DNA of 64,000 bases from an uncultured Gammaproteobacteria bacterium (GCA_964587425.1 CAZPLB010000003.1:60763-124762); one strand, 5' to 3'; positions 3,718-45,501 are shown, numbered from the stretch's first letter. Translations and numbers: made by a program. Notes: generated by a model not told the origin, from the sequence alone.

Positions 3718-4095
3718 ATGAAAATTATTGTTGATACTTCGGTTATTATTGAGTTTCTTCGTACAGGAAAAGGGGTGTATGTAGACCTCATGGAAAAAGC
3801 TAGTAAAAAATCAGCAGTGGTTTATGTACCTGCAGTGGTAGTTTTGGAACTTTGGAAAGGTCAAAGTATGAAAAATTCAGAGACCGAAAAAAGGGTTGAA
3901 AAAATCTTGTTGCCAATGAAAAGTGTAGATCTTACTAAACAGCTTGCAAAAAAAGCTGGAACAATTATAAGAGAGAATAATATGGATGATTTTTTAGACT
4001 CAGTAGTTGCAGCTGCTGCACTGTATTTAGATGCTAGTGTTGCAACACTTAATAAAAAACATTTCACAAAAATAAAGGGCTTGAAATTACTTTAA
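3718..4095 (+). CDS. vapC: PIN-domain toxin VapC
   Basis: 125 aa; 'KIIVDTSVIIEF' with the conserved acidic Asp near the N-terminus, and later acidic residues typical of PIN; translationally coupled to Phd. Confidence 0.7.
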   Translation: MKIIVDTSVIIEFLRTGKGVYVDLMEKASKKSAVVYVPAVVVLELWKGQSMKNSETEKRVEKILLPMKSVDLTKQLAKKAGTIIRENNMDDFLDSVVAAAALYLDASVATLNKKHFTKIKGLKLL

Positions 4096-8172: not shown

Positions 8173-8988
8173 TTAAATCCATTGAGGAAAAGTAACTGGT
8201 CTGCCGTAGCGTTCTGATGAGCCTATTTTGTATTCCGGTATCACAACTTGATCTTCATTTCCCCCCATTGCCATCTGTGTCAATTTAACGGCCAAGTTAT
8301 AACTATTCCTTAATTCTGTTCTTCTTTGTGAAGTAAGTTCTCTCCCTCCCCTAATTCCACCTCTAAAGACTCTCTCAGACAACTCGTAAAGATTAAGAGA
8401 GGAGCTTGAGATAGCAAGTTCACGAATTGCGGCCAGCCCCAATGGCGTGGTGTCTGCGATAATCGAAGCGGTATCGGTCCAAATATTCAATATTGGTAGT
8501 ATCTGACCATGTACATTCCTGGGAGCAAATAAACAAGGTATTTTGAGCCACAAAGGTTGAATATTATATGAATTAATTTTCATAATTTTTTCACGATGAA
8601 CTCTAGTCGGATTTTCTCTGAGTACCTTTTTCATATATTTGGCTCGATGGATATACTCACCATTTAGAAAGTGACCTGGAACAAAGTGTCCATAATGTTT
8701 TATCACTAATTCTGGAATAGCTTCTTGTAACCGAGTAATGCAATTTGTAATTGCCCCATCTCTCCCTTTTGTAGAAAGTCCATGGTTTTGTAATACTACA
8801 TTGTCAAAATAACCATCACATTTCAAAAAAATTCGAAGTACATCAAATTCTAATCGAGTCAAAGGTATTTCTTTTAAGACGGTCTCTGTCTCTAAAAAGA
8901 CAGGATACAACGGAACCCTTTCAGATTTGCGACCCAAAAGTGAATAGGAACTAGAACTTTCACTAATTTCTACATTCATTCTCTCCAT
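8173..8988 (-). CDS. Hypothetical protein; GC visibly above window background
   Basis: 271-aa ORF with no recognisable domain. A hand count of its first 100 nt gives ~45% GC against ~34-39% elsewhere. Confidence 0.5.
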   Translation of the reverse strand: MERMNVEISESSSSYSLLGRKSERVPLYPVFLETETVLKEIPLTRLEFDVLRIFLKCDGYFDNVVLQNHGLSTKGRDGAITNCITRLQEAIPELVIKHYGHFVPGHFLNGEYIHRAKYMKKVLRENPTRVHREKIMKINSYNIQPLWLKIPCLFAPRNVHGQILPILNIWTDTASIIADTTPLGLAAIRELAISSSSLNLYELSERVFRGGIRGGRELTSQRRTELRNSYNLAVKLTQMAMGGNEDQVVIPEYKIGSSERYGRPVTFPQWI

Positions 8989-9017
8989 CGCGAGTATTAT
9001 ATCTAAAAATTAACTCC

Positions 9018-9046
9018 TTGACACACTACGTTAAAAAATATATTAA
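9018..9046 (+). promoter_or_regulatory. Candidate sigma70-like promoter of the dcd-dut-thyX operon (TTGACA-17-TATTAA)
   Basis: TTGACA 9018-9023, 17-nt spacer, TATTAA 9041-9046, start codon at 9056 (near-leaderless). Confidence 0.35.
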
Positions 9047-9055
9047 ATATAGTGC

Positions 9056-9754
9056 ATGGCAAGAGAGCATTTCTTCGAAACTGGTCCTACACAATCTCTT
9101 CTTTCCCGAGAAACAATTCTTTATGAGATGCGACAAGGCAGTGTTGTTATAGACCCTTTTAATGAAAGTCAATTAAATACTGTGAGCTATGATGTCACAC
9201 TTGGGTCTCATTATTATCGTCCTAATCCAAATCACGGTCTCCGCGTCTACAATCCATGGAACGAGGATCATGTAAGAAGGTATTGGGGAGAGCCCTACGA
9301 AGCAAAAACTGCTTGGGAAGAATTTCGTGGAGATTGTCATGAGTTTGGCTTAAATGCTAACGACAGAGTAATCATTTTACAGCCCAAGGAAATGATACTA
9401 GGTCACACAAACGAGTTTATTGGTGGAAAAGGAACTGTGGCACCCATGATGAAGGCACGCTCTTCTATTGGTAGAAACGGCGACGTTGTATGTAAATGTG
9501 CAGGTTGGGGAGACATCGGCTACACAAATCGATGGACCATGGAAATTGAAAGTAGTTTGAGTATACCTAGTATCTTAATTATTGGTGAAAGTGTTGCACA
9601 AATTGTCTTTTTCAAAACTGATCCAATATTAGGTCAGGATTACACTTCAGGTGGTAAGTATCAGGATACAGATGATATGGATACTATTAAAAGCCAATGG
9701 TCACCAGAATCTATGTTGCCAAAATTGTGGAAGGATAGGATGAAAAGCAAATGA
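9056..9754 (+). CDS. dcd: dCTP deaminase-family protein (Dcd-like, extended)
   Basis: 232 aa. Alignable with Dcd: 'LSRETIL...VIDPF...TVSYDVTLG', 'KARSSIGRNG' (Dcd GRSSLARLG), 'GWGD', 'AQIVFF'. About 40 aa longer than canonical Dcd because of an internal insertion. Confidence 0.7.
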   Translation: MAREHFFETGPTQSLLSRETILYEMRQGSVVIDPFNESQLNTVSYDVTLGSHYYRPNPNHGLRVYNPWNEDHVRRYWGEPYEAKTAWEEFRGDCHEFGLNANDRVIILQPKEMILGHTNEFIGGKGTVAPMMKARSSIGRNGDVVCKCAGWGDIGYTNRWTMEIESSLSIPSILIIGESVAQIVFFKTDPILGQDYTSGGKYQDTDDMDTIKSQWSPESMLPKLWKDRMKSK

Positions 9755-38489: not shown

Positions 38490-39464
38490 TCATTTTGCCT
38501 GGTAGTAAACTCCGCGAGTACTTCCTAATTTTCGAATTAACCCGCCCTCCTGCAGCTTCTTTAGGTCATATCGAAGAGTTCTTTCATTCACTTTCATGAA
38601 TCTTCTTTTCAACTGGTCAAAGTTGACTATCTTCTGATCCTTCACAATTCTTAAAAGTTCGGCCCTTCTTGGAAGGAGAAAGTCTGTTGCATCTGTATTT
38701 TGTTTCATCAATACTTGTTCCCGCGCCTCTTTTGCAGTTTCATCAATTGCAGTTAGCATAAATTCAATATAATCAGTCAAATCCTTTTCTGGTTCCTCAA
38801 GTGCCCTGTAGTATTCGCTTCTATGATTATCAAGATACTCTTCAAGTGAAAGAAGCCCTTTCATTCCATACCCGCCTTGTTTTAAAATTCTCTGCAACAG
38901 TAATCTTCCTGTTCTACCATTTCCTTCTTCAAATGGATGAATCTTTTCAAAACTGTAATGAAAAAGTACTGCCTTAATCGGCATTAATCTTTCACGCCCG
39001 GCATTTATATATTTAATGAGTTTTTTCAAAAATAGCGTTACTTGTTTCGGTGGGGGAGGCATATAGATTGCAATTCCAGCACTATTGAAAATTGCCTCCA
39101 TATTGTTTCTCAACTTTCCGCCATCGGGGTGTAGTTCATCAAGTACAATTTTATGAATTTCAAGTATTTCATTTAAACTGACATCCTTCTTTTGATGCCT
39201 ATTTATGAAATTTAATGCTTTCAAAATATTTTGTACTTCAAGTTTTTGCTGCCTTTTGGAAGTCGAATCAAAATCCAAGAGTGTTAGTTCATTTCCCTCA
39301 ATCCTGGCTGAATACAAAGAGCTTCGAAGTGTTGATTGTCGGCGAATATTATTTTCGACTTCAGGTGGAATTGTAATGGAATCAATTACATGCTTTGATG
39401 CTTCAATTGAGGAGAGTAATTCAGAAATTTTGGGAGTGAGCCTATATTTGCCTGGAACCAGCAT
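38490..39464 (-). CDS. fic: Fic-family protein (class II with N-terminal inhibitory helix) plus C-terminal wHTH
   Basis: 324 aa; Fic motif '[12 protein letters not shown]'; inhibitory motif 'SARIEGN' (S/T-x3-E-G/N) upstream. Confidence 0.8.
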
Positions 39465-39523: not shown

Positions 39524-40054
39524 TTGACTTCAGAGTACGAAACGAATATTATCTTCATAGTGAAAAGATATTGGTTTTTGATTATTCCAGTTTTAGTTGT
39601 TGCAGCCGTTTTGGTACTAGCCAGAAGCACCCAGAAAAAGGATAATCCAGAAAGTCAGGTAGAAGGGTTGGCAGTGGTTGCAACCAGTACACCTTCAGGA
39701 GAAATAAAAATGGACACACAAACACCATCAAACGAACTAAAAATAGAAGATATTACAGTTGGAACTGGAGATGAAGCAGTCTCAGGAAAGAAAATTACAG
39801 TTAATTACTCAGGAACGCTAACCGATGGAAAGAAATTTGACAGTTCATATGACAGAAATATTCCCTTTAGTTTCACTCTCGGAGCAGGGGAAGTAATCCA
39901 AGGATGGGATCAAGGATTTAATGGTATGAAAGTTGGAGGAAAAAGAAAGTTAACAATACCAGCAAGTTTAGGATATGGTTCAGCAGGAGCTCCTCCAGTT
40001 ATTCCAGGAAACGCAACTTTAATATTTGAAGTAGAACTTCTAAAAGTAGAATAG
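39524..40054 (+). CDS. Membrane-anchored FKBP-type peptidyl-prolyl cis-trans isomerase
   Basis: 176 aa; TM anchor; FKBP domain '[54 protein letters not shown]'. Confidence 0.8.
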
Positions 40055-40231
40055 TTATATGATCGAAGCTCTTTGGAGAATAAATGCCTGGACACCAAAC
40101 GAAGTCTTTTGTGTTGAGGCAGCTGCTTTAGAAGAAGGGTACGAAGTTTACGAAGACGAGGGAGAAGTTCTTATATTAACTTCTGACGGTAAGGATGGCG
40201 CAACTTTTTTCTCTACTGTCTACAAAATGAT

Positions 40232-41428
40232 TCAGGAATCTCTCTTAACTAAGACAAACATTGCAATAGACCCGGCCACTGCAAATATACTTCCAAAGAT
40301 AAATACAGCCGGGTGGCCAATTTTGTCCCACACCTGACCTGCAATTATTGAAGCAAACAAACTCGTTAAACCAACGGTTGCAGAGTACCACCCTATCCCG
40401 CTTGCACGAAGACCAAAAGGAACCAAATCAGAAGCAAGTGCCTTTCCAACTCCTCTGAAGATTCCCTGATAAACTCCATACAAAATAAAAAGAAAGGCAA
40501 TTACAAAATAACTACGTGTTAAGGCAAAACCCAAATAGCTAATGAAAAAGATAAGGAAAGAAAATATCAAAATATTCTTTCTACCAAATTTATCAGACAA
40601 AGCCCCAGATGGATATGAGACAAGTGCCGCAGCTAAATTAAAAAATGCATAAATAAATATTGTTGTTTGTAAACTTATTCCAATATCCCGGGTTGCAAGA
40701 ATTAAAAAAGAACTGCTGGAAGCTCCAATTCCAAAGACAGCAGTAGCAAGTAAATATTTCCAATAACTTTTACCAAATGATCGAAACTTAACATTCAATT
40801 TTGTCTTTTCAATCTGTACACTTTTTCTTTCCCTCACTAAAATTATTGCAGCCACAGAAAGAAGACCTGGAATGAGTGCGATGTAAAAAATATTCCTAAT
40901 CGGAATTTTCAAAGAAAAAAGAAGAAAAATCGCAAACAATGGTCCAAGAAACGCTCCCAAGTTATCTCCAATCCCTTCCAACCCAAATGCCTTTCCTTTA
41001 TCTTTCTCATCAACTGAACCTGCAATCAAAGCATCGCGTGGAGCAGACCTTGTTCCAGTTCCTAGCCTATCTAGAAATCTAATTCCAAGTACCTGCTGCC
41101 AGATAGTTGAAAAACCAATTAAAGGTTTACTTAAAGCGCTAATCAGATACCCAACAATCGCCAGGTATTTCCTTCTTTGTATTTTGTCAGAAATATATCC
41201 GGCAAAACCCTGAACTATGTTTTGTGTAGCATTCGCTATTCCTTCAACTAATCCAACAATTGCTCCATTAGCCCGAAGTGTCTGGGTTAAAAAGATTGGG
41301 AGGATAGGGTAGAGCATCTCGGTCGCAATATCTGCAAACAAAGAAACCGATGCAAGAAGGAAAGTGTCGCGGGTAACTCCCGAGAAATATTTAGATAATT
41401 TTGTAGCCGGCTTTTTCAACAACATCAT
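40232..41428 (-). CDS. MFS transporter
   Basis: 398 aa, 12 TM. The start may lie at a downstream Met because the ORF overlaps the copZ 3' end by 38 nt. Confidence 0.7.
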   Translation of the reverse strand: MMLLKKPATKLSKYFSGVTRDTFLLASVSLFADIATEMLYPILPIFLTQTLRANGAIVGLVEGIANATQNIVQGFAGYISDKIQRRKYLAIVGYLISALSKPLIGFSTIWQQVLGIRFLDRLGTGTRSAPRDALIAGSVDEKDKGKAFGLEGIGDNLGAFLGPLFAIFLLFSLKIPIRNIFYIALIPGLLSVAAIILVRERKSVQIEKTKLNVKFRSFGKSYWKYLLATAVFGIGASSSSFLILATRDIGISLQTTIFIYAFFNLAAALVSYPSGALSDKFGRKNILIFSFLIFFISYLGFALTRSYFVIAFLFILYGVYQGIFRGVGKALASDLVPFGLRASGIGWYSATVGLTSLFASIIAGQVWDKIGHPAVFIFGSIFAVAGSIAMFVLVKRDS

Positions 41429-41585
41429 TAATTACTTTCTCATTTATATTAGCACCTTCAACTTCCAAAGTTTCCTTTGCATAATTGCATTTTGCCTTAA
41501 TCCCGACATCCTCTAAATCGCTTTCAATCATCATCGCGCAGCTTGTGCAATCCATCCCCTGTATTTTATATGTTTTCATATTCAT
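41391..41585 (-). CDS. copZ: Copper chaperone CopZ (HMA domain)
   Basis: 64 aa; 'GMDCTSCAMMIE' metal-binding loop (GMxCxxC). Confidence 0.8.
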   Translation of the reverse strand: MNMKTYKIQGMDCTSCAMMIESDLEDVGIKAKCNYAKETLEVEGANINEKVINDVVEKAGYKII

Positions 41586-42599
41586 CTAATTAATAACAGT
41601 AAACTGGCCGTTGTACATTCCCATACCGCAAGTGTAGGGAAGTTGCCCGATTTCTTTTGGAGTAAATTCAATTTCAGTGCTGCCGTTTTGCGGAAGTATC
41701 TTTGAAACGTTTAATTTTGGAATTAAGAAACTTCTTGCACAGCTTTGTACGTTGTTTGAAATGAGGGTAAGTTTAACTGGAACGCCAACTTTAATAGCCC
41801 CGCTTGGCTTTGAATATCCGCTTGAAGCTACGTCTATTGTTACTTCCTGTTTACCCTCGGAATCTAATTGTGCAGCAGCACCTGCAACCGCAGGTCTGTT
41901 TGTATTCGAAAAAATGGTGCCGATAGCTGTACCGTAGTTTTGTAGAGTATGAGGAGAACCTCTTAATACCTGACCCGAATTCATTGAAAGAACCCCAAGA
42001 ATAAATATCACAAAGGAGGCTGGATAGATGAAAGCCTTTTTCTTCAATAGAGTAAGTGCCGTCACGCCAAGAGTGAAAAATACTGGACTTGTACCCAAGG
42101 TAAAGGCAAACATAAGAAGCGCGCCGTTAAAAGCACTTCCACTTCCAACAGAAAGAACCATCATGGCTTGTGTCACTCCGCATGGAATTAAAACTGTCAT
42201 CGTTCCCAAAATTCCCGGGGTAAAAAATTGAGCCCTTTTGGTTTTATTCTTCATTAATTTATACAGAAACTTTGGCGGTTGAATTACAAAATATCTAAAA
42301 ATTGGATGGAGATTTAAAAGACGTCCTACAGTTCCAAGCATGAAAATACCCACAAAAATCTGAAACCATCCTTGCAGGGCGGGGGAGATAATAAACTTTG
42401 CTCCCAGGTACCCCAAGAGCCCTCCAAGAAGGGTGTAGGCGAGTATTTTAAAAAAGAGAAAAACACTAACGCCAATAAATCTGTCGTTTTTAGTTGCATT
42501 ATTGGTGAGGGATGATGCCAACAACCCCCCCTGCACTGCCATGCAGGAAATCCCACCAGTAGTTAATCCAGTTAGAAAAGCTAGCCAAATTTGATTCAT
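41586..42599 (-). CDS. DsbD_2/CcdA-like membrane domain fused to a C-terminal cupredoxin-like domain
   Basis: 337 aa; TM1 'GGISCMAVQGG' and TM4 'LIPCGVTQAMM' cysteines as in DsbD_2 permeases; C-terminal 'TCGMGMYNGQFTVIN' is paralogous to the 117-aa gene at 42969-43322. Confidence 0.6.
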   Translation of the reverse strand: MNQIWLAFLTGLTTGGISCMAVQGGLLASSLTNNATKNDRFIGVSVFLFFKILAYTLLGGLLGYLGAKFIISPALQGWFQIFVGIFMLGTVGRLLNLHPIFRYFVIQPPKFLYKLMKNKTKRAQFFTPGILGTMTVLIPCGVTQAMMVLSVGSGSAFNGALLMFAFTLGTSPVFFTLGVTALTLLKKKAFIYPASFVIFILGVLSMNSGQVLRGSPHTLQNYGTAIGTIFSNTNRPAVAGAAAQLDSEGKQEVTIDVASSGYSKPSGAIKVGVPVKLTLISNNVQSCARSFLIPKLNVSKILPQNGSTEIEFTPKEIGQLPYTCGMGMYNGQFTVIN

Positions 42600-42610
42600 A
42601 ATTTAAGCTC

Positions 42611-42663
42611 TTGACATTAGGATAAATGTTTATTATAGTGTTGTCAATCCCCCCCTCGGGGAT
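42611..42663 (+). promoter_or_regulatory. csoR promoter (TTGACA-17-TATAGT) with GC-rich operator palindrome ATCCCC-N5-GGGGAT
   Basis: TTGACA 42611-42616, 17-nt spacer, TATAGT 42634-42639. Palindrome 42647-42663 lies between the -10 and the csoR ATG (42697), overlaps a minus-strand TTGACA (42642-42647), and resembles known CsoR operators (GC-rich arms, 5-bp spacer). Confidence 0.5.
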
Positions 42664-42696
42664 AAACAAGTTAGTGATTACATTTAAAAATAAAAT

Positions 42697-42975
42697 ATGC
42701 CAAAAGGAATACCAAGAGACAAATCGTTGCAAAGAACCATAATCCATAGACTTAAGATTGCAGAAGGGCACTTGAAAAAAGTGACGAAAATGACCGAGAA
42801 TGGTGAATACTGCATGGATGTAATTAATCAATCGCTTGCAGTACAAATGGCACTTAAAAAAGTGGATGAATTAATCTTGAAAAATCATTTGCAAACTTGT
42901 GTAAGAGATTCGGTTAAAAAGGGCGGAACTGAAGAAAGTATTGAAGAAATTATTGGAGTAATAGAAAGATGGTAA
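42697..42975 (+). CDS. csoR: Copper-sensing repressor CsoR (CsoR/RcnR family)
   Basis: 92 aa; 'RL.I.EGHL..V' helix and Cu ligands in 'YCMDVINQ...HLQTC' (C-H-C pattern). Confidence 0.75.
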   Translation: MPKGIPRDKSLQRTIIHRLKIAEGHLKKVTKMTENGEYCMDVINQSLAVQMALKKVDELILKNHLQTCVRDSVKKGGTEESIEEIIGVIERW

Positions 42976-43322
42976 TTGAAAAAATAATTGTATCGACTGG
43001 AGGGTTATTGCTAATAGGTTTTATATATTGGTTCTTTTTTGGAAAAAAAGAAAAAGCAGTTGAAGGAAACACTCAAATCATAGTTGAAGGCGGCTATAAG
43101 CCGTCAATAATAAAAATAAAGAAGGGTGTAAAAACAACCCTGACTTTTACTCGCCGCGACCCGAATTCGTGTTTGGAAGAAGTAGTAATACCGGCATTTA
43201 AAGTGAAAAAGTATCTGCCAATCAATACACCTGTCAATATAGAAATTATAGGTAAAGAAACTGGAGAGTTTGGGTTTAGATGCGGGATGGGGATGTTTAG
43301 CGGGAAAATAATCATTGATTAA
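42969..43322 (+). CDS. Membrane-anchored cupredoxin-like protein (Cupredoxin_1-like)
   Basis: 117 aa; TM anchor; 'IIVEGGYKPSIIKIKKGV...NSC...FRCGMGMFSGKIIID'. Confidence 0.6.
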   Translation: MVIEKIIVSTGGLLLIGFIYWFFFGKKEKAVEGNTQIIVEGGYKPSIIKIKKGVKTTLTFTRRDPNSCLEEVVIPAFKVKKYLPINTPVNIEIIGKETGEFGFRCGMGMFSGKIIID

Positions 43323-43350
43323 TTTAATGATTATTAACTTTTAAAAAAAT

Positions 43351-45501
43351 ATGGCAAAAAAATCTTTTCCAATCATAGGAATGCACTGCGCGAGCTGTGC
43401 AAGGTTAATTGAAAAAAAATTAACAAAGACAAACGGTGTAGTTTCTGCAAATGTTAACTATGGAAGTGAAACTGCAACAGTTGAATACGATGATTCAGTA
43501 ATTGCTGAAGAGGAACTAGTAGAGGCAGTAAAAGAAACGGGATACCAGTTAATTCATTCAAGTGGAGAACACGACAAAAGTGCAGATGTGATTAAAGAGG
43601 AAGCAAAGAAAAAAGAACTTGAGGATTTGAGATTGAAAGTAGTAGTTTCAGGGATATTATCAGTAATAATTTTTATTGGAAGTTTCCCTGAATGGTTCAC
43701 TTTTGTTCCCAGTCTCTTAAGTGATCCATTAACGCTTCTTGTCCTATCTATTCCTGTTCAGTTTTGGGCAGGGCTCTCATTTTTTAAAGCAACAATTTCA
43801 GGACTAAAAAACAGAACTGCTAGTATGGATACCCTCATAGCGATAGGTACTTCAGCTGCATTTTTCTATTCAGTGCTTTCTATTTTTGGTTTCACCAAAG
43901 GAACATATTTTGACACAGCTGCAGTAATTATCGCTCTCATTCTTCTGGGAAGGTACTTAGAAGCGAGAGCGAAACTTCATACATCTGATGCCATTAAAAA
44001 ATTGATTGGACTTCAAGCAAAAACTGCACGCGTGATTCGAAACGGGCAAGATTTAGATATACCAATTGAAGAAGTAAGAGAAGGAGATGAAATTAGAGTA
44101 AGGCCAGGAGAAAAAATAGCAGTAGATGGGGTAATCATTGAAGGAAATACTTCAATAGATGAATCTATGGTAACAGGTGAATCAATCCCAGTCGAAAAAA
44201 TGAAAGGAGACACAGTAATTGGCAGCACCATGAATAAAAATGGAACATTAATTTTCAAAGCAACAAAAGTAGGAGCTGACACAATGCTCTCCCAAATTGT
44301 GAAGCTTGTTGAGTCTGCTCAATCGTCCCGTGCTCCCATACAGCGCCTTGCTGATGCTGTTTCTTCCTACTTTGTTCCAGTTGTCCTGATGCTTGCAGTT
44401 GCAACTTTTGTAATTTGGTTTGACTTCAATACTCCAATAAATGCATTCGTTAACATGGTTGCAGTTCTAATAATAGCTTGCCCATGTGCCATGGGACTGG
44501 CCACTCCTACTGCAATAATGGTTGGGACGGGAAAAGGAGCAGAGAAAGGAATACTGGTTAAAGATGCACAAAGTTTGGAAGTTGCAAGTAGAGTCAAATC
44601 TATTATTTTTGACAAAACAGGAACTCTCACAGAAGGAAAGCCAAAAGTAACAGACATTACAAATTTGGAGGTATTGAAAATTGCAGCCAGTTTGGAAGTT
44701 GGATCAGAACACCCGCTTGCTGAAGCTATCGTTAATTATGCAAAAGAAAAAGGTGTAAATATGGAAAAGGTTGATGAATTTCAATCAATTACAGGTCAAG
44801 GGGTTGAAGGAAAAATAAACGGCAAAAAGTATTTCTTCGGGAAGCACACTGAAAAAAGTGAAGACGTGAAGGAGATGGAAAAAAAGGGGAAAACAGTAAT
44901 AACGCTTCTTGAAGAAAATCAGATGTTAGGAACAATAGCTGTAGCTGATACACCAAAGGATGGAGTAGGCGAGGTTATACAAAAACTTCAGGAAAGTAAA
45001 ATCAATGTTTGGATGATAACTGGGGATAATAGGGCAACTGCAGAAGGAATTGCCAAAACAATTGGAATTAAAAATATAATGGCAGAGGTTCTTCCAGGTG
45101 AAAAGGCAGAGAAGGTAAATGAATTAAAGTCGATGGGAATTAAAGTAGCGTTCGTTGGGGACGGCGTCAATGATGCACCGGCATTGGCAGCTGCAGATGT
45201 TGGAATAGCAATGGGAACTGGCACTGATGTAGCAATAGAGGCAGCAGGCATTACACTTCTAAATAAAGATATTAGATCGGTTCTTTCAGCATTTAAATTA
45301 AGTAAAAGCACCTTAGCAGTTATAAGGCAAAATCTCTTTTGGGCATTTGGCTACAACATTATTTTAATCCCAGTTGCAGCAGGTATTCTTTACCCTTTCA
45401 CAGGATGGCTACTAAATCCTGCTATAGCAGCCGGAGCCATGGCACTGTCATCATTATCAGTAGTTACAAATTCATTAAGGCTAAAAAGTTTGAAGATATA
45501 G
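43351..45501 (+). CDS. copA: Copper-translocating P1B-type ATPase
   Basis: 716 aa; N-terminal HMA 'GMHCASCA', TM 'CPC' ([13 protein letters not shown]), 'DKTGTLT', '[10 protein letters not shown]'. Confidence 0.9.

Follow-up and report, generated by a model that had tools for sequence, protein, structure and literature searches.

A copper-resistance locus at positions 40232-45501 of a 64,000-nucleotide stretch of DNA filed under an uncultured Gammaproteobacteria bacterium (GCA_964587425.1, CAZPLB010000003.1:60763-124762; the whole stretch is called the window below) encodes a membrane protein in which a DsbD_2 core is fused to a CupA-like cupredoxin domain, followed by a small gene for a CopZ-like HMA protein. 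We propose, with a probability of about 0.5, that the fusion protein and its HMA partner would form a Cu(I) relay leading from the cytoplasmic HMA domain to the external CupA-like site. The plus-strand part of the locus appears to be an ordinary copper-efflux operon and the fusion is widespread; the function of the HMA/CcdA-like/CupA-like module is what we infer here from sequence. More tentative, a little short of even odds, is the wider suggestion that such modules (two genes here, one chain in paralogues) may make up a hitherto unnoticed class of copper transporter; it would be common in Patescibacteria and Anaerolineae and masked by the database name 'sulfite exporter TauE/SafE'. The features that make up the module are the following.

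41586-42599, minus strand: fusion gene, 337 amino acids, with DsbD_2 at residues 7-202 and Cupredoxin_1 at residues 244-335
41955-42599, minus strand: six-transmembrane (six-TM) CcdA/DsbD-like core, fusion residues 1-215 (DsbD_2, E = 5.3e-27 to 7e-27, 95 bits)
41589-41870, minus strand: fused CupA-like cupredoxin domain, fusion residues 244-337 (Pfam Cupredoxin_1, E = 4.4e-11), with C287...C324-G-M326-G-M328
41391-41585, minus strand: copZ-like HMA gene, 64 amino acids (Pfam HMA, E = 4.5e-9)

The fusion protein and its family

A database search with the fusion protein gave 5059 matches, the best 120 of which all carry both Pfam domains. The fusion is encoded in at least 588 species genomes, mainly from Woesebacteria, Gottesmanbacteria, Collierbacteria and other Patescibacteria, together with Anaerolineae including the cultured Longilinea arvoryzae KOME-1. 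An earlier reading of the same DNA (the original prediction) had singled out the fusion as unusual, and with these numbers it is not unusual in occurrence. Among the best 120 of the 5059 matches, those with a name are annotated as 'sulfite exporter TauE/SafE family protein' or 'hypothetical'.

DsbD_2 is the only Pfam family that matches the core up to E = 10, TauE not appearing at all, and no NCBIfam model matches the fusion protein. One homologue, 66% identical, scores above the DsbD_TM (PF02683) gathering threshold, in a colinear alignment over residues 8-192; the window fusion itself scores below it. Among 96 diverse core representatives, chosen from clusters at 50%, DsbD_2 is found in all 96, Cupredoxin_1 in 84 and DsbD_TM in 29 (best E = 1.1e-12).

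Invariance was computed in 28 fusion homologues of 55-66% identity. The invariant positions are C19 and Q23 in TM1, then P139-C140-G141, T143, Q144 and M146 in TM4 (motif P139-C140-G-x-T-Q-A-M), and C287, C324, M326 and M328 in the C-terminal domain. M147 is conserved in at least 90% of the homologues, and together with the invariant M146 it would place soft ligands beside C140. The CcdA/DsbD electron transporters, to which the core is homologous, have such a cysteine pair in TM1 and TM4 as their signature; the label 'permease' for DsbD_2 is a putative one. As far as we found, DsbD_2 proteins had earlier been linked to CsoR only through COG2836, in a regulon predicted from metagenomic data on gut Firmicutes (PMC4938975).

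The CupA-type domains and CopA

Two proteins of the locus end in a cupredoxin-like domain, the fusion and a free protein of 117 amino acids encoded on the plus strand. They had been taken for novel; judged by sequence, both are CupA homologues. The CupA family had its structure solved in 2013. With phmmer, the free protein matches CupA of S. pneumoniae (PDB 4F2E/2MRY) at E = 2.8e-19 and the CupA-like metal-binding domain of pneumococcal CopA (4F2F) at E = 3.4e-8. The corresponding values for the fused domain are 6.2e-8 and 6.4e-7, and 1.1e-11 (CupA) and 1.9e-10 (4F2F) when a family profile is used. The cupredoxin fold expected for both domains is thus borne out by homology to 4F2E.

The copper ligands C74, C111, M113 and M115 of CupA make up its S1 and S2 sites (PMC5646241). 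The segment C68...C105-G-M-G-M of the free protein aligns to C74...C111-x-M113-x-M115, and the full Cys...Cys-x-Met-x-Met set is kept in both window proteins in the form C...C-G-M-G-M. A BLASTP alignment of the two window domains (E = 1e-15, 34% identity over 92 residues) supports the earlier proposal that they are paralogues.

A hydrophobic helix at residues 6-24 would anchor the free protein, and its flanks (MVIEK-TM-GKKEK) predict a C-in orientation with a cytoplasmic domain, the sidedness being given by prediction. The Patescibacteria loci contain 24 free CupA homologues with a conserved WFFFGKK anchor flank, again predicting C-in. The C-x-M-x-M motif is present in 22 of the 24, mostly as HCGMNM, and the genes adjoin those of HMA-type CopA proteins. 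Such evidence supports a role of the window CupA as a putative Cu(I) chaperone that is tethered to the membrane, as in pneumococcus.

CopA itself matches the Pfam families E1-E2_ATPase, Hydrolase and HMA, with one ferredoxin-fold HMA domain at residues 6-66 (8.9e-18). The motifs CPC, YN and MxxSS can be read in the translation, and the assignment as a P1B-1 Cu(I) pump is supported, as predicted from its sequence. No Cupredoxin_1 match is found in CopA, here or in the related loci; its N-terminus is an HMA domain and not a CupA-like partner domain.

Topology, the HMA partner and the triple fusion

Mean counts of lysine plus arginine (K+R) along the fusion core are 0.14 at the N-terminus, 2.1 in loop 1-2, 0.5 in loop 2-3, 5.7 in loop 3-4, 0.14 in loop 4-5 and 2.6 in loop 5-6. 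This alternation argues that both termini of the fusion lie outside (N-out/C-out), and the fused CupA-like domain is predicted to be extracytoplasmic. In DsbD the terminal domains face the periplasm (PMC4460558).

The HMA protein of the window scores 37 bits against a cutoff of 24.8, is leaderless and has GMDCTSC at residues 10-16. It falls below the NCBIfam equivalog cutoffs for CopZ, and is therefore called CopZ-like here and not an assigned orthologue. For comparison, 80 loci were taken from species genomes encoding the fusion, and the six window proteins were mapped onto each. A leaderless HMA gene of ~65 amino acids follows the fusion gene in 71 of the 80, the proteins having MxCxxC near the N-terminus and then a conserved acidic IExDLED. 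The pair of fusion and HMA gene persists without copA or csoR within 5 kb, for example in Longilinea arvoryzae, which argues for an autonomous two-gene module.

The acidic motif of the HMA partners, IE-x-DLED-x-G, lies directly behind the CxxC helix. On the fusion, the loop between TM3 and TM4, which is cytoplasmic, is conserved and strongly basic (HPIFRYF-x-IQPPKF, ~5.7 K+R). The two may be mutual docking surfaces.

A paralogue in one related locus (L014, 3177-4925, minus strand, 582 amino acids) joins the parts in a single chain, in the order leaderless HMA, extra helix TM0, DsbD_2 core, CupA-like domain, Gly/Cys-rich linker and second cupredoxin domain. Its core has C133 in TM1 and PC263GFTQAM in TM4, its CupA-like domain has C399...C435-x-M-x-M, and the gene stands directly upstream of another HMA gene and copA. 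In a search with this triple fusion, the best 120 matches all carry PF00403 (HMA), PF13386 (DsbD_2) and PF13473 (Cupredoxin_1), with one or two cupredoxin domains and two size classes of ~448 and ~600 amino acids. No HMA domain occurs in the 96 nearest core representatives, from which we take the triple fusion to be a separate and more distant clade.

From the stretch before TM0 onward, the K+R counts of the triple fusion are 3.8/0.45/3.45/0/6.0/0/3.0, a pattern which indicates an HMA domain inside, seven helices and the cupredoxin part outside. TM0 would be what joins a cytoplasmic domain to an N-out core, and it lends independent support to the predicted topology. The extracytoplasmic placement of the fused domain thus fits both the positive-inside counts and the paralogue. 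Fusion of HMA to the core in the paralogues further implies that the HMA protein is functionally tied to the core.

The linker of the L014 protein, SCGGSGGGGCGCGGG, lies between two predicted extracellular cupredoxin domains, the second of which retains only C...C-x-M. It is conserved across the ~600-residue class and may be an extra thiolate copper site.

The locus and its control by CsoR

The remaining genes of the locus, its operator and its promoters are as follows.

40232-41428, minus strand: MFS transporter (Pfam MFS_1, E = 2.3e-49, above the gathering score)
42697-42975, plus strand: csoR, 92 amino acids (Pfam Trns_repr_metal, E = 1.9e-22)
42969-43322, plus strand: cupA homologue, TM-anchored Cupredoxin_1 protein of 117 amino acids (Pfam Cupredoxin_1, E = 9.7e-17)
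43351-45501, plus strand: copA, 716 amino acids, P1B-1 Cu(I)-exporting ATPase (TIGR01511, 654 bits against a cutoff of 397)
42647-42663, no strand: putative CsoR operator ATCCCC-N5-GGGGAT, a type-2 G/C-tract pseudopalindrome (ATCCCCCCCTCGGGGAT), conserved across loci
42611-42639, plus strand: csoR-cupA-copA promoter TTGACA-17-TATAGT, 11 of 12 consensus matches
42619-42647, minus strand: candidate divergent promoter of fusion-copZ(-MFS), TTGACA-17-TATCCT, 10 of 12 consensus matches

The six genes, the 97-nucleotide region between csoR and the fusion (42600-42696), the plus-strand promoter and the palindrome were all found where the original prediction had placed them. In a Pfam profile search of the window proteins, all six gene assignments exceed the gathering scores, those by Cupredoxin_1, DsbD_2 and Trns_repr_metal included.

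CsoR scores 79.9 bits with Trns_repr_metal (PF02583; cutoff 22.8) and has the ligands C39, H64 and C68 with second-shell Y38 and E84. The spacing of the ligands is that of C36/H61/C65 in M. tuberculosis, and the roles of these residues are taken over from the family (in part PMC4938975). The identification as a copper-type CsoR, a repressor of the Cu(I)-sensing family, is thereby supported, as had been predicted.

ATCCCC-N5-GGGGAT is matched exactly by ATCCCCCCCTCGGGGAT and by no other site in the 64 kb window, where by our own estimate ~0.002 exact matches would be expected by chance at the window base composition. Where csoR and the fusion are divergent neighbours, the motif is present with at most two mismatches in 34/34 intergenic regions. 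A scan covering 776 kb of related loci gave 41 matches with at most one mismatch, 36 of them adjoining the 5' end of csoR. On these two counts the palindrome is supported as a real, conserved CsoR operator, the part that had been assigned to it from its position. Published CsoR sites are type-2 pseudopalindromes of two G/C tracts with AT-rich flanks, and the Streptomyces consensus is ATATACCCCTNAGGGGTATAT, with conserved TAC-X9-GTA (PMC3902906). The window site shares this form, but with ATC/GAT flanks and a span of 17 bp.

The operator begins 7 nucleotides past the -10 hexamer of the csoR promoter, at ~+1 to +17, and would directly block the csoR-cupA-copA promoter. In most related loci TTGACA-N16-18-TAnnnT ends 5-7 nucleotides before the operator, and in ~8 others the operator occupies the spacer between -35 and -10. 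The -35 hexamer of the minus-strand promoter has one base in common with the operator, and the two promoters overlap. In 13 related intergenic regions TGTCAA abuts ATCCCC, with an AGGATA-like -10 hexamer, and the minus-strand promoter may function. Repression of both transcripts from this site had been proposed. This is probable for the csoR-cupA-copA side; for the fusion side it is plausible, by covering of the -35 and upstream region, but less certain. A copper-detoxification regulon native to a Patescibacteria genome, with a single CsoR operator common to two divergent operons, is the best explanation of the locus.

The divergent promoters form a near-symmetric unit of 37 bp (window 42611-42647), TTGACA-tt-AGGATA ... 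TATAGT-gt-TGTCAA, in which each -35 hexamer adjoins the -10 hexamer of the opposite promoter; the layout recurs in ~13 related loci. RNA polymerase could probably occupy this unit in only one direction at a time.

Two other arrangements were seen in the related loci. A Blackburnbacteria locus (L004) has two csoR copies, at 3763-4032 and 8872-9123, and, besides the csoR site, an extra operator-like site GATCCCCCCACGGGGTTT 176 nucleotides upstream of the fusion gene (sites at 4040-4056 and ~4825), so that its fusion operon may have its own control. In four loci (L026, L033, L035 and L047) the order on one strand is csoR-copA-fusion-copZ, with a C4-N-G4 site found nowhere in the locus; their CsoR proteins match that of the window weakly (1e-9 to 1e-12) and may recognise a different operator.

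Proposed mechanism

Apo-CsoR would bind ATCCCC-N5-GGGGAT, and Cu(I) would release it from the operator so that both operons switch on. The second operon would encode a two-gene transmembrane Cu(I) relay with three paired-sulfur stations. At the cytoplasmic station, the CxxC of the CopZ-like HMA protein would pass Cu(I) to the membrane cysteines. The membrane station would consist of the invariant C19 and C140 in TM1 and TM4 with neighbouring Met and Gln, and the six-helix core of CcdA/DsbD type would alternate its access and hand Cu(I) outward. The fused CupA-like Cys2/Met2 site would serve as the external station, where copper may be held or released. A disulfide-relay scaffold would in this manner be reused, alongside CopA, as a chain of bis-thiolate Cu(I) stations. 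The co-regulation with copA in the window and the csoR-copA-fusion-copZ strings in other lineages favour outward transport or external trapping of copper.

A number of points weigh against the relay. The core is homologous to the electron transporters CcdA and DsbD and not to a proven metal transporter, and the cysteine pair in TM1 and TM4 is the exact hallmark of an electron relay. The full-length AlphaFold2 (AF2) model is of moderate quality, with a mean predicted local distance difference test (pLDDT) score of 72 and the linker at 208-240 below 50, and no solved structure matched the TM core. In the literature on DsbD_2, COG2836 or TauE with CsoR, CopZ or cupredoxin, no functional study of any member was found. 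The intergenic region is not richer in promoter-like sites than shuffled sequence, so the promoter calls rest on conservation across loci, and the minus-strand promoter is a consensus match alone. Finally, an operator upstream of the fusion gene is usually not found in loci where csoR is not adjacent, which suggests that copper induction of the module is not general.

Alternatives to the Cu(I) relay

The same parts could instead carry electrons, which we consider rather unlikely. A core of CcdA/DsbD/ScsB type would take reducing equivalents from the cytoplasm via C19/C140 to the external C287/C324, whose thiols would be kept reduced so that the domain traps Cu(I) or reduces Cu(II) outside, CopZ being merely the chaperone of CopA. 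Membership in DsbD_2, close homologues that pass the DsbD_TM gathering score and invariant TM1/TM4 cysteines placed as in CcdA/DsbD all agree with this, as does the DsbD-like architecture, in which a domain with a Cys pair on the outside follows the TM core (PMC4460558). Thiols of an external domain would need protection from oxidation, and the C74/C111 pair of CupA reduces Cu(II) in vitro with the source of the electrons an open question (PMC5646241). However, the obligate partner of the fusion is an HMA metallochaperone and not a thioredoxin-fold protein, linked to it even without a nearby CopA; in a large family of paralogues HMA and core form one covalent chain. The window neighbourhood of the locus showed no thioredoxin-like gene, and the invariant Met ligands of a low-affinity hand-off site together with the TM4 methionines fit the passage of metal better than a pure redox function. 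If the path carries electrons, it would be a natural answer to how CupA-type cysteines are re-reduced; if, as we prefer, it carries copper, a redox-relay fold would serve as a new route for copper, independent of ATP.

A copper path could also run inward, and we find this distinctly improbable. MerP, MerT and the N-terminal domain of MerA make up a mercury import chain, which the present parts (a soft-metal site outside, paired cysteines in the membrane and HMA in the cytoplasm) would resemble by analogy: the CupA-like domain would capture Cu(I) outside and pass it via the TM cysteines to CopZ, which would then supply CsoR, CopA or copper enzymes. The module stands alone, without copA, in several genomes including that of Longilinea, and in these it lacks a CsoR site. 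However, the control region is common with csoR-copA in the window and in ~34 related loci, so that excess copper would induce the module, and import during copper stress would be counterproductive. In other lineages the fusion sits within the csoR-copA-fusion-copZ strings, and to our knowledge few copper enzymes are known from Patescibacteria. Hardly credible, last, is a TauE/SafE-type exporter of sulfite or other anions with a blue-copper electron-transfer module as its C-terminal domain, unrelated to detoxification. It has in its favour that NCBI and JGI label many members 'sulfite exporter TauE/SafE family protein'. Against it stand the lack of a TauE match in Pfam up to E = 10 and of any NCBIfam match, the CupA set of Cys/Cys/Met/Met in a fused domain whose best match is CupA, and a gene context of HMA, CsoR and CopA throughout. 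We rejected the annotation since the core matches DsbD_2 alone, the attached domain is of CupA type and the gene context is one of copper, and we regard the family name in the databases as misleading.

Comparison with known systems

The copY-cupA-copA operon of S. pneumoniae (CupA, PDB 4F2E; CopA metal-binding domain, 4F2F) is alike in its membrane-anchored cupredoxin-fold chaperone, its Cys...Cys-x-Met-x-Met binuclear Cu(I) site and the position of cupA directly upstream of copA. It differs in that the regulator is CopY and not CsoR as here, that the present locus also has a CopZ-like protein and a CopA with a ferredoxin-fold HMA domain in place of a CupA-like one, and that the host is here a Patescibacteria genome. 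A 2020 review placed CupA in only few streptococci and stressed the cupredoxin-cupredoxin pairing with CopA (PMC7558416). The pairing does not apply here because the N-terminus of CopA is HMA. Homologues of CupA are routine in candidate-phylum bacteria, under CsoR control and paired with an HMA-type CopA, which loosens both ideas of the review.

With the CsoR regulons of B. subtilis, Streptomyces lividans and M. tuberculosis the locus has in common the C-H-C Cu(I) sensor, autoregulation and a type-2 operator of two G/C tracts with AT-rich flanks that overlaps the promoter of the copA operon. The flanks are ATC/GAT here and TAC/GTA there, the span is 17 bp against 15, helix alpha-1 has RLKI against RLXR, and one site here serves two overlapping divergent promoters.

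DsbD, CcdA and ScsB have a homologous TM core with one essential-looking Cys each in TM1 and TM4, outward termini and an external Cys-pair domain fused C-terminally, as DsbD gamma; ScsB is a precedent for a link to copper tolerance. In the present protein, by contrast, the external domain is a CupA-type copper site and not a thioredoxin or Ig fold, and the cytoplasmic partner is an HMA metallochaperone (fused via an extra helix in some paralogues) and not a thioredoxin. TM1 lacks a Pro-Cys motif here, and conserved Gln and Met flank the cysteines. In the MerP-MerT-NmerA chain, paired-thiol stations outside, in the membrane and in the cytoplasmic HMA domain likewise move a soft metal by ligand exchange, a likeness that would be one of analogy. 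The membrane protein is unrelated, the outside station here is a cupredoxin and not HMA, and the metal would be copper, with a likely outward direction.

Comparable too are the COG2836 proteins (HMA + DsbD_2 + DUF2318) of the gut-Firmicutes CsoR meta-regulon (Hobbs et al. 2016, PMC4938975), in which a DsbD_2 core is joined to a metal-binding domain under predicted CsoR control, with HMA and DUF2318 in place of the CupA-like domain. That study analysed only 8 operons and proposed no function or topology (PMC4938975). The present analysis exposes a large membrane-protein family in the copper gene clusters of hundreds of species, whose domain fusions lay out a path of three stations across the membrane, with HMA in the cytoplasm, a cysteine pair in the membrane and a Cys2/Met2 site outside.

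Genomic setting and neighbouring genes

GC content is flat at 0.35-0.40 across 34-52 kb, the copper locus (0.36-0.40) being no different from its flanks. The locus had been called an island; a horizontally acquired one is ruled out by the even composition, which points to a native locus. The identical sequence is present on a Logan contig, and the nearest relatives among the database matches to the fusion are Patescibacteria, mostly Woesebacteria.

The MFS gene overlaps copZ by 38 nucleotides and is probably co-transcribed with it in the window. It had been counted as a member of the system, but in none of the other related loci does it follow the fusion-HMA pair, and it is thus not a conserved member. 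The same lack of conservation, together with a translation that has no visible Met-rich motifs, ruled out a CcoA-like copper importer.

Convergent with the 3' end of the MFS gene (40232-41428, minus strand), and overlapping it by ~100 nucleotides, is an open reading frame of 92 amino acids (window 40059-40337, plus strand), which has no Pfam match and which the Logan contig annotates as a gene. Either this frame or the MFS gene may be miscalled, or in truth shorter than its annotation. Directly adjoining the copper locus are also a Fic-domain protein (window 38490-39464, minus strand) and an FKBP-type isomerase with an N-terminal hydrophobic segment (window 39524-40054, plus strand). Both are annotated on the identical Logan contig, and no copper link was seen for either.

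Many of the metagenome-assembled genomes with related loci are titled 'uncultured Gammaproteobacteria', 'uncultured Pseudomonadales' or 'uncultured Actinomycetota' (L009, L012, L021, L026, L028, L031, L033 and others). Their loci are 48-56% identical to Woesebacteria-type fusion genes and have a Patescibacteria-like context, and the taxonomic labels of the records look unreliable.

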